From positions 1 to 64,000 of the forward strand of contig CAWECG010000003.1 in assembly GCA_963807605.1 (NCBI GenBank): a DNA stretch of 64,000 nucleotides, read 5' to 3'. This DNA is from Candidatus Bathyarchaeota archaeon (GTDB lineage Archaea > Thermoproteota > Bathyarchaeia > 40CM-2-53-6 > RBG-13-38-9). The position numbers were made by a program, and so were the translations under genes. This document shows, piece by piece, positions 31,705-54,606 of this stretch. Below the pieces are notes generated by a model. That model worked only from the letters and a program-made list of their open reading frames with translations. It did no database searches and was not told the DNA's origin. The stretch's first letter is position 1. Each line of letters begins with the position of its first letter.

Positions 31705-32868
31705 GTGGTTTATACGTGTTACAAGGAGAGCTTGCCGGTACTTCTGATGTCGATTACGACTGGTAAGCTTCCACTAACCCTGCTATTGATGATGGTGATT
31801 GTCTCAGCAGGCTCCCTTATCCAATTGCAGCCTGCCTCCGCAACCTTTCCAGGAGCCAACGGCAAGATAGTATTCTCAAGAATCGTCGGAACCATTGTAA
31901 TTCAAACCCCTCCAACTATTTTCGCTCCAACCCTTCCAACTCTGCTCCCTCAATATGAGATCTTCACTGTGAACCCTGACGGCTCAGGCTTGACTCAGCT
32001 TACCTCGACCGGGTCAGGCACGGCTAATGTATACCCACGTTGGTCTGCGGACGGTACAAAAATAGTATTCGCAAGCTTCAGGACTGGCGTATCCGCGATC
32101 TGGGTGATGAATGCTGACGGATCAGGACAGAATCAAATAACCCATCCACCAGCTTCTACAAGTAACTATGAACCGGCCTTTTCTCCTGACGGATCAAAGA
32201 TTGTATTCACAAACGAATCATCAACTACTACTAACATTTGGGTGACTAATGTTGACGGCTCAAACCAGAAGCAACTGACTATAGGATCTGAGCAAGACAA
32301 TTTTCCTGTCTGGTCTCCTGACGGGTCGAAGATAGCATTTATGAGATATCCAGTATCCGGCAACGAACACATCTTTATAATGAATCCTGACGGCTCAAGC
32401 CAGACCGACATAAGCAAGGATCCTAGCGCACAAGACTACTACCCTGAATGGTCCCCTGACGGACGGATGATTGCATTCAGTAGCTTCCCCAGTTTTGCGA
32501 TCTGGGTTATGAATGCTGACGGTTCAGGCAGGAAGCAACTGAGCACTCCTGCTAATGGATTAACAGATGTCTTTCCCGCTTGGTCTCCTGACGGAACAAA
32601 GATCGCATTCACCAGAGGCGGACTCGCTAGCATAATTGTGATGAATGCAGACGGCTCAAATCCAACTGACATAACCCAATCACAGCCAAACTCAATCACC
32701 GACACTACTCCAAACTGGCAGCCTCTGTTCCTGCCTCCGCCCGCAAGACCTGTAGGCGGAGTCACCCTACCAACCAACAAGCTTGAGATTCTAACACCCT
32801 CCCTAACCTTAGTAGGACTAGCCGCTGCAGTATCCGCAGTTGTAGTAGTTAAGAGAAGAAGAGACTAA
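31705..32868 (+). CDS. Secreted TolB-like (PD40) beta-propeller protein with PVGG C-terminal anchor
   Basis: Signal peptide, ATFPGANGKI, repeated P.WSPDG.KI.F, C-terminal PVGG + TM helix + KRRRD; start may be 31747. Confidence 0.88.
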   Translation: MVYTCYKESLPVLLMSITTGKLPLTLLLMMVIVSAGSLIQLQPASATFPGANGKIVFSRIVGTIVIQTPPTIFAPTLPTLLPQYEIFTVNPDGSGLTQLTSTGSGTANVYPRWSADGTKIVFASFRTGVSAIWVMNADGSGQNQITHPPASTSNYEPAFSPDGSKIVFTNESSTTTNIWVTNVDGSNQKQLTIGSEQDNFPVWSPDGSKIAFMRYPVSGNEHIFIMNPDGSSQTDISKDPSAQDYYPEWSPDGRMIAFSSFPSFAIWVMNADGSGRKQLSTPANGLTDVFPAWSPDGTKIAFTRGGLASIIVMNADGSNPTDITQSQPNSITDTTPNWQPLFLPPPARPVGGVTLPTNKLEILTPSLTLVGLAAAVSAVVVVKRRRD

Positions 32869-32982
32869 CCAAAACATCCTTCCTCTTTTTTCGTAACTTC
32901 CTAGCATACTTTCTTTTTCACAATCTGCCGGGCGAAGCGAGGCATATCTTTTTTCGTCGTCGTATCCCTTGGTGAGCACACC

Positions 32983-33414
32983 TATGAGAATGGAGAGTCT
33001 GTACCAGTTAAATGGTCTTCCCATGGACTGGGGCATCTGCTCCATGAAAACGAGCAAGAATGGGAGAAAGCTCTGTGGACTAACATTCTACGATACGCAT
33101 TAGGCAAAATTTCCAAAGAGGAATTGCTAGCACCGTATGCAACTGAGTATGCCGTGGCAAAACTAAGTTTGACTAAACCTCACCTTCTCAAGAGAGTCAA
33201 GGCCATAAACAAAGTAACATCAATGACCAAGCGGATCAGGCCCTACAATTTCGTTCTAGCTGGGTCTCCCGCCAGAGTAGACCAAAGAGGCAAACCCATC
33301 ATTCCGCTGACAAATTTCACCAGAGAATATGATCTAGCTCCACATCAAACGTTCGTTGATGCCAGGAGTGGCAAACACTAGACAGAATACACCGAATCAT
33401 ACTGGAGAAGATGA
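32983..33414 (+). pseudogene. Fragment of a casposon-type family B DNA polymerase
   Basis: KWSSHGLGHLL...W...IRPYNFVLAG...PIIP...FVDARSG..*..SYW, a motif set recalled from casposon PolB C-termini. Confidence 0.6.
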
Positions 33415-34248
33415 ATAAGGGGTAGGAGGGTGGACAATACGCCTATCCAGAGGTCTTCATCAGGCTCCTAGGCTACATGCGCATGTTCTTCCACCTGCCC
33501 TACCGGCAGACAGAAGGACTCCTGAAAGCACTGAGAAGATTCGACTCAAGGATCAAAGTGCCTGACTAAACTATCGACAGGCGTGTGAACAAGTTGGATG
33601 AAAAAATCTTTGGAGATGACATAGTCCTGGCGGTGGATGCTTCAGGCATCAAGGTAGCTAACCGCGGCGAATGGATGCGCGACAAATGGAAGATCAGACG
33701 CGGATACCTAAAGATCCACATCGCGGTGGATGTGAAGCAGAAGAAGATCCTGGCGCTAGAGGTGACCGATGAAAAAGTGGGAGATGGACAAATGCTCAAG
33801 CCGCTGGTTGAGGAAGCCTCCAAGAAGAGTAAGGTCGCTAAAACAATTGGCGACGGAGCATACGATATGGAAAGCAACTTTCACTACCTCGACGCAAAAG
33901 GGATTGAGTCACGCATCAAGGTGCGGAAGAACACATCCAGCAGAGCCGGAGGATGCACGCCCCGCAAACTCGCAGCCCAAAAATACCTGCAGGACCCGTA
34001 AGCCTGGAAACGCAAGCATGGCTACGGCCAGCGCTGGATGGCTGAAACCGCCTTCTCGTCCTTCAAGCGAACCTTTGGAGAATATGTCTCAGCCAAAACG
34101 ATGCAAAACATGGCGAAGGAAATGATGATCAAAGCCTCACTATACAACATGCTGATAGAAACGACCACAGCAACACAAGGCTAGACGAAACCTGAAGACA
34201 GCCAACAAAAGCGAAAAGCATCACCGAAACCTAGTCGCGCAACACAGC
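33410..34248 (+). pseudogene. IS5-family transposase, degraded, with right TIR
   Basis: FHLPYRQTEG, VDASGIK, YLKIHIAVD, GDGAYD, YGQRWMAETAFSSFKR with internal stops; ends in gcaacacagc. Confidence 0.85.
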
Positions 34249-34306
34249 ACACACGACCAAAGTTTTAAATCAATCAATCTGAAATTTCTAGATAGGTGCA
34301 TCTGGT

Positions 34307-34645
34307 TTGGTAAGTCGTTCCATAATAGCGATAGTGGTTGTCATAGTGATAATTGCTGTGGCTGGAGTCTACTATATCTCTAGATCTCCTGCCCCGACTC
34401 CGCAATACTCACCTCCTCAGTCTACGACGCCAACCGTCGCTGCAGACGGTGCAGCATTGTACAAAGACAACTGTGAAGCGTGCCATGGTGCAAAGGGTGT
34501 TGGAGGGAAAGGCCCCGTGCTCACTGCCAGCAATGTAAACAGAAATACAATAGAGAAAGGTAATATCGATAAAGGTATGCCAGCATTTGGGACTACACTC
34601 ACTCCGGATCAGATTACAGCGATACTACAGTACTTGACATCCTGA
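34307..34645 (+). CDS. Membrane-anchored monoheme cytochrome c
   Basis: N-terminal TM helix, GAALYKDNCEACHG, GMPAFG. Confidence 0.88.
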   Translation: MVSRSIIAIVVVIVIIAVAGVYYISRSPAPTPQYSPPQSTTPTVAADGAALYKDNCEACHGAKGVGGKGPVLTASNVNRNTIEKGNIDKGMPAFGTTLTPDQITAILQYLTS

Positions 34646-35143
34646 GTAGAAATGGTAAAATCTCAACTCCTGTAGTGTAGGCGTTTTTCCCGGCCTGCGT
34701 CATTATGGCTCGATGATAGGTGATGGTCCAAGGAGCATTCAGTAGAGCCTACGCTGGCTTATGCAGAGCTTGAAGACGTTTCAGAATGTTCCGGTGCCTT
34801 GAAAGTAACTCAAGAACTCCGTCAAGGGCCCTCATCCAGCGAGCGCATCCCTCCAAACTTATCGAATCAAAGTATGTTGCCATTGAGAGGTAAAGGTAGG
34901 CCGAATGAAACTAAATGTTCAACTGTTCATTCAAGGCATCTAAGATTTTCTTGCCAATCATTTTTCTCACACTTTTGTATGTAGACTTCAAGGGGCTGAT
35001 AGCTACTTAATGCTATAGCGTCGACGTTGTGAATAGGTATCCCCTTTTAACAAGAGTCAAAGAATACGGCTTGGAATGTTGTGAACGTCTTCGATCGAAC
35101 TTAATAGGTGCCAGTTCCTAATTGAAATTTAAGTAGGTTTTGT

Positions 35144-36008: not shown

Positions 36009-36161
36009 AACCTCAACTCATCCATATCGCCAGTGACAAACCCTTTATTCTGGAAACCACGAACTAGGCAAGAGAAACACCACAAGACTGCATAGAGTCG
36101 GGAATGAAAAGGGAAATGAAAATGTAGGCGGTCGCACCACTCCAGCAATGAATAGATACAA
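36009..36161 (+). repeat. About 153-bp dispersed repeat, copy 1
   Basis: Near-identical to 53043-53195; partial copy near 59912-59942. Confidence 0.9.
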
Positions 36162-36383
36162 CTGATGGAATCTTTGCGCCACACACAAGAACTAGACAGT
36201 TATTCAGAATCCGCAAAGAGTCGGGTCATATGATGAGGCTAGTTATTAGTACCGTAACCTTTTTCTATGCAGCATAGCGCGCGCGTTTTGGGATACTAGC
36301 ACAATTACATTGTGTAATGGTCGCGCCTAACTTCTGGGAGAAAATAAGGATAAAGAAGGTTGGAAAGCAGGCTAGTGTTGGCT

Positions 36384-39465: not shown

Positions 39466-39611
39466 CTTGACGACCTTCGGTTAAACATGCCAAATGCTGG
39501 AAAGTCAGGATTCATATTAAATACACGCGTTGTTAAGCAAATCGCTTCCTACAAGGGCTCGTACGAGCGTGCTTGACCGTGTTCCGTGAGATAAGCGCGC
39601 GCTGGCCTGAC

Positions 39612-39685
39612 TTACACGTGTAATTTACACGTCGATTTCCAGACTTACACGATCCAGCTATAACGCCGTTATTCCCTATATCCCC
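39612..39685 (+). repeat. Casposon-TIR-like arm
   Basis: About 75-bp repeat with CACGT boxes ending ccctatatcccc directly at a 14-bp core. Confidence 0.75.
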
Positions 39686-39704
39686 TGTCCCTTGGTGAGC
39701 ACAC

Positions 39705-39824
<120 letters not shown>

Positions 39825-52774: not shown

Positions 52775-52990
52775 TTGCTCCTCATGACGTGCAAGATGTC
52801 CTTCGTTCTAGGATATTCTATGGTGGCTTTGAAGTGTCTTAGACTCTTGAAGCTGATCTTTTGTATTCTAGGGTTTTGCATCTTCTCTGCTATCTTCTCT
52901 GACCAAGTCCGGAACAGGTTTGTCAAAATCGATTTGTTTTGTTTTTCCGAGAATGAAAATCGCCAGTTCCTGAGTTTTCAACATTATCAT
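52775..52990 (-). pseudogene. Tyrosine integrase internal fragment
   Basis: IAEKMQNPRIQKISFKSLRHFKATIEYPRTKDILHVM (H/K-x-L-R-H box); not in the ORF track. Confidence 0.75.
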
Positions 52991-53042
52991 GCTATCCCAC
53001 CGATAGTATTTGTTTCGGTGTAATACAGGAGAATTGAAGGAA

Positions 53043-53195
53043 AACCTCAGCTAATCCATATCGCCAGTGACAAACCCTTTATTCTGGAAACCACGAACTA
53101 GGCTAGAGAAACACCACAAGACTGCATAGAGTCGGGAATGAAAAGGGAAATGGAAATGTAGGCGGCCGCACCACTCTAGCAATGAATAGATACAA
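53043..53195 (+). repeat. About 153-bp dispersed repeat, copy 2
   Basis: Near-identical to 36009-36161. Confidence 0.9.
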
Positions 53196-53708: not shown

Positions 53709-54105
53709 GTATCAGAGTGATCAACGTGAAAGTAAAAGCGCTAAAAAGGCCCAACACACCCATCGCATATCCTTGATGATGAATAAAATCAGAATAACCT
53801 TCATCGTCGGCGCCCAATCAAATCACCCTACCGATAGCGAGTTTGCTTGATTCTCCCCCACCTCCCGTTTCAAAGGATATAAGATTTGTCAATGTTTTAC
53901 AACACTTCTTCATTGCTAAACGCAGTCTCCCATAGCAAGTCTCGTGTGCATAGGGCGGCGTGATTTCAAGGCGCGCGCTATTGATTGTGTGTGTGCCTTG
54001 CTGGTGAGCGACGACGACGAAAAAAGATGTGCCTCGCTTCGCTTGGCAGATAATGAAAAGGAAAGTATGCAAGGAAGTTATGAAGAAAGGGAAAGACTGT
54101 TTTGG

Positions 54106-54606
54106 TTAGTCTCTTCTTCTCTTAACCACTACAACCGCGGATAATGCAGCGACTAGTCCTGCTAAGGTTAGGTAGGGTGTTAGAATCTCAAGCTTGTTAG
54201 TTGGTAGGGTGACTCCGCCCACAGGAAAAGTGACTGCATGGAGAATAATGTAATAGTTTTCTCCATTCAGATTGATGCCAAATGGACCCGGAGGGCCGAC
54301 CTGGCCGTAAACTTCGACTAGGTCTCCAACCTGAACATCAGCATAGCCCTGTTGTGGAAATGGAGGACTTACAACAAAGCCAACCTGAACGGTGCTGCCG
54401 ACCGTGAGGCTTCCTGAGCTATCAGAGATTATCTCAAGAATCTGGACATCCCACCAATGTGAACCGATGAGAATCCCCTGATTGGTGACCAAACCTCTGA
54501 TCTTAGCCTCTGTACCGTTAGCGGTAACTACAGGAATTATCGTACTCATAGCGGAGAGAACTAGCAGCATCATTACCGGTGCAAGAACTGAATAATTCTT
54601 ATTCAA
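54106..54606 (-). CDS. Secreted beta-rich protein with PVGG C-terminal anchor
   Basis: Signal peptide; C-terminal 39 aa almost identical to those of 31705-32868. Confidence 0.8.
   Translation of the reverse strand: MNKNYSVLAPVMMLLVLSAMSTIIPVVTANGTEAKIRGLVTNQGILIGSHWWDVQILEIISDSSGSLTVGSTVQVGFVVSPPFPQQGYADVQVGDLVEVYGQVGPPGPFGINLNGENYYIILHAVTFPVGGVTLPTNKLEILTPYLTLAGLVAALSAVVVVKRRRD

Follow-up and report, generated by a model that had tools for sequence, protein, structure and literature searches.

The stretch at positions 32984-33406 (+) of the window analysed here, a DNA of 64,000 nucleotides (G000:C3:1-64000) from a 2.65-Mb Bathyarchaeota assembly that is 94% complete, is dead: it is a non-functional stump of the DNA polymerase gene, polB, of a family-2 casposon. 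Casposons are jumping elements that use a Cas1 integrase. Taken alone, the stump is ordinary casposon debris, left by a known type of element in a lineage, Bathyarchaeia, for which we found no description of casposons in the literature searched. The unusual part is its left junction, in which a 14-bp casposon target site (the core) is joined through a short CA tip to the middle of polB, and which occurs three times in one genome. What is new here is that three of the four polB stumps of the host genome have a CA tip between them and a core and begin 8-9 nt from that core, all of them reading away from it.

Table 1. Features of the window around the polB stump
Feature	Position	Strand	Evidence or remark
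Neighbouring cassette, cargo gene: TolB-like WD40-like/PD40 repeat protein	31705-32868	+	Pfam PF07676, E 1.5e-34
Inherited cassette end: subterminal GCGAAGCGAGGC motif, T-run, (GTC)n tip	32932-32962	+	Conserved in relatives
14-bp core TATCCCTTGGTGAG (CTCACCAAGGGATA on the minus strand), copy of casposon target site	32963-32976	-	13/14 identical to L011 duplication
CA tip CACACCT, in place of a GGGGATATAG terminal repeat	32977-32983	+	Absent from native polB in 9 homologues
polB pseudogene fragment	32984-33406	+	Residues ~645-784 of ~850-aa casposon PolB
CTGGA microhomology, common to polB and IS5 transposase gene: deletion junction	33402-33406	+	
IS5-family remnant, frameshifted, left end (~216 bp) missing, right terminal repeat intact	33402-34249	+	DDE_Tnp_1, E 3.8e-16
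Casposon terminal repeat (GGGGATATAG...), ending early at GCGCGCGC tract (39595)	39603-39685	-	Aligns with L011 and L006 repeats
Next core, same orientation	39686-39699	-	13/14 identical to core at 32963-32976

Identity and coding state of the stump

A sequence-only reading had described an in-frame stretch at 32983-33414 (+) with the motifs of a casposon family B polymerase and an internal stop. Frame, motifs and stop all read as it described; the stop, a TAG at 33379-33381 (+), is a nonsense change from TAC, which the closest homologue retains. The extent needs correction at one end, since polB sequence runs only up to about 33406 and the final residues, RR*, are IS5 sequence. The frame has 54 protein homologues, all of them longer, and the best matches (E 2e-63, about 81-83% identity) bear out the assignment, being family-B polymerases of ~850 aa with CDTDS as motif C. 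DNA identity to the closest homologue is 84% over 437 nt. A resemblance of this degree does not arise by chance. Full-length homologues carry the exonuclease motifs together with motifs A, B and C of the polymerase, and match PF03175 and PF00136 weakly in Pfam. The CDTDS motif names the PolB group that contains the PolB of the Aciduliprofundum boonei casposon (PMC7544198), and it is by homology to these proteins that the fragment belongs to this group; queried by itself, the 132-aa fragment had no significant match in Pfam or PDB. An origin from a viral or plasmid PolB is not supported: with the polB queries used, no homologues were found among the viral contigs of IMG/VR or the plasmids of PLSDB.

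The fragment starts just past the KxY motif and has neither the exonuclease nor the polymerase catalytic motifs; with the stop in addition, no intact catalytic domain is present in the window copy. It retains 24 of 24 family-invariant residues, and its branch is short and lies next to P0001 and to a Bathyarchaeota copy of the same genus, implying that it is a young pseudogene.

Casposon parentage

Neighbourhoods of the homologues are those predicted for a casposon polymerase. A cas1-solo gene and one neighbouring gene are divergent from polB in all four of the full-length or near-full-length contexts opened, and cas1-solo is linked to polB in 74 of 80 more distant loci, Methanosarcinaceae among them; locus scans with single sequences gave one locus each. 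The pattern that would contradict casposon identity, intact homologues lying mostly away from cas1, was looked for in these neighbourhoods and was not seen. The HTH match beside cas1 is faint or weak in L004 and L011, and the small genes before polB have no Pfam match.

Two intact elements carry the argument further. L011, in a related assembly, is a casposon of 17,758 bp with ~150-bp repeats starting GGGGATATAG. The identical 14-mer TGTCCCTTGGTGAG flanks it on both sides; beyond one end lies a tRNA-like arm, beyond the other a (CA)n run. L006 has the same architecture, so that both elements show the terminal inverted repeats and exact 14-bp target duplication of family 2. The stump had been offered as independent support for the involvement of casposons in the core/arm system; that involvement is real, and these two elements show it more directly than the stump, which alone is the weaker support. 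No autonomous casposon remains at the locus of the stump, where cas1-solo is absent and a polB stump, one shortened repeat (39603-39685) and cargo are what is left.

The host assembly contains no intact polB that we could find. Its sole full-length cas1 (G000 C3:803495-804700, equivalent to L012:17496-18704) encodes a protein whose best structure match is the Methanosarcina mazei casposase 6OPM (residues 4-397, E 6e-72), in an alignment that includes the C-terminal HTH extension. It has Pro at the position of the catalytic His (H232 of M. mazei), so that the only full-length casposase of the genome is probably dead. The 9-kb unit that holds this gene (G000 C3:796434-805413) also carries SIR2-like and ATPase genes beside the casposase, and has only (CGA)n ends, yet is flanked by a perfect 14-bp duplication and a leader arm. 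Within the window, a casposase fragment (residues ~292-350) lies at 52883-53059 (-), and the 153-bp piece adjoining it is duplicated at 36009-36161.

Target sites and the surrounding cassette

A rule-based scan found 120 cores in the genome and none in a reversed-genome control. The L011 14-mer is identical to the window core at 39686 and one base off the core at 32963. The motif TCAA[AT]T begins 15 nt ahead of the core in 39 of 42 leader-type sites. A TCAAAT leader motif was mapped for the A. boonei casposase 8 bp upstream of the target duplication (PMC6614799), and the spacing in our leader-type sites is that same position. Casposons of M. mazei also make 14-base duplications and insert in tandem (PMC4779613, PMC10359463). 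We conclude that the cores are 14-bp casposon target duplications with a tRNA-like leader, which confirms that casposons made the repeats surrounding the polB stump. No predicted tRNA ends in the core (CTCACCA), in a prediction that may miss multi-intron tRNAs, and a natural tRNA target was thus not found. Neighbouring cores are inverted in 53 of 90 cases, and those in the same orientation are identical in only 2 of 37. The junction types present in the genome include tip-core-repeat (4) and repeat-core-tip (5).

The core's other side is an inherited cassette end. The end of the TolB-like gene, with tip and core, is found also in relatives G001, G002 and G008, and the cassette end recurs inverted, at 90% identity, at window 54011-54225. 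In relatives this same cassette end is followed by the core and usually then by the tRNA-like leader arm, implying that the polB piece sits where later insertions are expected. On the far side, the stump's own element may have left its right end as the terminal repeat at 39603-39685. The pairing of the two is weak, however, because 24 of the 120 cores lie within one mismatch, and for this reason the 13/14 match between the cores at 32963 and 39686 was rejected as proof of a single element. The segment between the stump and this repeat is a mosaic, and no orthologous, undeleted (parental) locus was found in 20 relatives. A long (CA)n tract at window 39700-39822 has grown from the tip beside the core at 39686.

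The two junctions of the stump

At the left junction, six bases (CACACC) separate the core from position 32983, exactly the distance first claimed. Knowledge of the parent gene allows an exact reading of the junction: polB DNA homology begins at 32984, 7 nt past the core, and the join can be placed only to 32977-32984. The CA tip shares the nine bases CACCTATGA, ending in an ATGA that overlaps polB, with a tip at G000 C4:715294.

The four polB stumps of the host genome belong to three or more alleles, with an identity of about 80% in the overlap of two of them, and all come from the last quarter of polB, a region that adjoins cargo in intact elements. The fourth stump starts not at a core but at a GCGCGCGC scar (TAGCGCGCGCTA). 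The chance that at least three of the eight stump ends would lie so near a core is 7e-6 (binomial P, island-only background), or 2e-4 when cas1 fragment ends are also counted; among the seven cas1 fragments checked, no end lies within 800 bp of a core. In other genomes, none of about six 5'-truncated polB relics (L020, L021, L026, L027, L108 and L112) starts at a core plus tip, and four start at or near GC-rich tracts, so that the core-tip-polB pattern did not generalise. Three polB breakpoints (window 33400-33406; G000 C2:55926; C3:796411) lie about 12 nt or less from the same YW codons, as was noticed post hoc.

The right edge had been attributed to an IS5 remnant. Such a remnant does adjoin the stump, but the junction is no insertion end: the left terminal repeat and ~216 bp are gone, polB and IS5 share the five bases CTGGA, and the combination of terminal repeat and target duplication that marks an IS5 boundary is absent. 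IS5 insertion as the cause of this edge is therefore rejected. Eight longer IS5 copies in the genome, 84-85% identical to the window remnant, keep the left terminal repeat. The right edge is instead that of a deletion which reached into an IS5 body and closed at 5 nt of microhomology. In one small-share DNA sequencing run, coverage fell on IS5 sequence only. Window 34259-34836, right after the IS5 end, is an about 95% copy of G000 C3:1022164-1022688, a cytochrome c gene region.

Tips and a second joint across the genome

Tips are joined directly to diverse, unrelated sequence in 67 of 142 cases and are part of structured ends in 66; the tip beside the core at 32963-32976 is conserved across genomes. 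The sequence GCGCGCGC occurs at 269 loci, against 17.5 expected under a Markov model (about a 15-fold excess), and at 63 of 768 ends defined by homology boundaries, against a control mean of 8. In the window it is found at 36277, 39595, 42034, 53287 and 53971; some cases are ends of IS elements. GCGCGCGC is a second low-complexity joint and marks many rearrangement joints. The sequence AGCGCGCGCT is common in most genomes of the host's family but rare elsewhere in the order. Two reading frames run into tips without a stop (G000 C1:522438-523592, 385 aa; C3:796425-797894, 490 aa); searches of 60 relatives found no homologues of either, and they are possibly genes cut at tips.

Origin of the core-tip-polB junction

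How did the middle of polB come to lie beside a target site? The explanation that we prefer, and hold to be probable, is that a casposon sat at this core and that its left part was deleted in place, leaving the stump beside the element's own landing site. The casposon would have gone into the core that adjoins the TolB-like cassette, its polB pointing away from that core. Its left part, comprising the terminal repeat, cas1, the HTH gene and the first three quarters of polB, would then have been lost, a break at or just beside the core being rejoined to mid-polB through a few CA bases while the downstream cargo was kept. A separate deletion would have taken the end of polB together with the start of an IS5 earlier inserted downstream. 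The right edge shows joining through microhomology, and the left edge (ATGA) may do so too. The CA bases most likely came from a small tipped unit, of the kind often found between a core and the end of a casposon, because such junction types exist and another tip shares nine bases with this one. New writing of the tip at the break is somewhat less favoured; it is conceivable because half of the tips join unrelated DNA and GCGCGCGC marks rearrangement joints. Against a plain deletion, an endpoint within about 12 nt of a core on three occasions is unexplained unless the tip is a hotspot for breaks. The starts of the relics in other genomes, the weak pairing with the repeat at 39685 and the lack of a parental allele also count against deletion in place.

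A rival explanation, which we think unlikely, is that the fragment was captured in the manner of a spacer. An excised casposon, broken within polB, would have had a (GT)n 3' tip written on it, and the hybrid-ended fragment would have been integrated by the casposase; the cores would then be the repeats of an array that takes arbitrary cut DNA, the element's own genes included. The direct joining of nearly half of the tips to unrelated sequence fits this, as does the 9-kb cas1 unit, with its perfect duplication and leader arm around (CGA)n ends. So does the presence of a second low-complexity joint, GCGCGCGC, at homology boundaries, the fourth polB stump included. Casposases, moreover, need only about five terminal residues (PMC6614799) and accept single-stranded ends (PMC6977970). 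Characterised casposases, however, want TCCCC ends, and changes at C-3 or C-4 impair integration (PMC6614799), whereas the tips end in G. The tips that belong to structured ends, the conservation across genomes of the tip beside the core at 32963-32976, the rarity of identical neighbouring cores in the same orientation and the polB relics of other genomes that have no core-tip junction all argue the same way, and no tip-writing enzyme has been identified. Extended to Bathyarchaeia at large, the idea would be that broken ends receive a (GT)n or (GTC)n tip and that tipped fragments, whatever their origin, are inserted by the casposase at 14-bp sites marked by a leader, a proposal to which we give equally little credence. 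Were it true, the polB stumps, which are cut in mid-gene where we know the parent sequence, would directly document the uptake by a stand-alone Cas1 of parts of its own element, and so a natural step between transposition and the acquisition of CRISPR spacers.

The remaining explanations are far less probable. Insertion of a tipped unit by the casposase into a cryptic target inside polB would make the junction a true insertion boundary, and the 14 nt at the start of homology (32984-32997) do end in TGGAGAG; in the homologue from the same genus, that codon position reads TGGTGAG. The anatomy of the junction largely refutes this, and we reject it: the real core, 7 nt upstream, is not derived from polB, the cryptic site has no adjoining leader motif and no inward-facing tip before it, and the other two stumps have different starts, close to the YW codons. 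Chance adjacency of an unrelated polB scrap and a core is a shade less probable still. Cores are dense in islands, and this heavily rearranged region is a mosaic of deletions, but three independent polB alleles show the same junction type in the same orientation, with the low P values given above. Least probable of all is a retained and expressed mini-protein, a C-terminal PolB subdomain. The intact invariant residues, a dN/dS of about 0.2 against homologues and an 85-codon frame starting at TTG would suit it; however, there is no in-frame start at the 5' end, the nonsense change and the truncation at both ends speak against it, and the low dN/dS reflects the working past of the gene, whose branch here is short. 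Nor are there conserved orthologues of equal length, all homologues being longer or differently cut. Deletion in place thus remains the explanation that we favour.

Comparison with known systems

Compared with the family 2 casposons MetMaz-C1 of M. mazei (casposase PDB 6OPM) and that of A. boonei (PMC4046053, PMC4779613, PMC10359463), the elements described here share a PolB of the CDTDS group beside a cas1-solo with a C-terminal HTH region, terminal repeats ending TCCCC, and a 14-bp duplication with a conserved 5' part. They also share the TCAAAT leader motif 8 bp upstream, tandem insertion at a shared duplication and decayed copies with stops in polB. They differ in their host, Bathyarchaeia, in having about 120 tRNA-end mimics as targets rather than one to three sites, in that (CA)n or (CGA)n tips, instead of terminal repeats, make up most of the core flanks, and in the fusion of a tip to the middle of polB. 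The solo-TIR remnants of M. mazei (PMC4779613) are likewise casposon debris left beside a target site after decay. In those, however, the repeat is kept and the genes are lost, whereas the junction described here has lost the repeat and kept a piece of an internal gene.

The junction of landing site, CA and mid-polB, present three times, ties the 120 landing sites to casposons. It also raises the question of whether ends other than TCCCC are integrated by a family-2 casposase; if they are, this would bear on the shift of Cas1 from moving transposon ends to capturing spacers. As in spacer acquisition by Cas1-Cas2, a short repeat is duplicated next to a leader, and pieces of mobile elements lie between repeats. 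In contrast to CRISPR, insert length is not fixed, neighbouring cores are often inverted, and cas2 was not seen beside cas1 in the contexts opened. From its anatomy, the core array is compatible with CRISPR-like uptake at a leader-repeat junction, and the stump junction hints at an integrase that may take up arbitrary cut DNA. The same leader-core-tip system is present in related assemblies (L006, L008, L112 and L113), where the core reads CGCACCA, resembling the CGCA found in targets of M. mazei.
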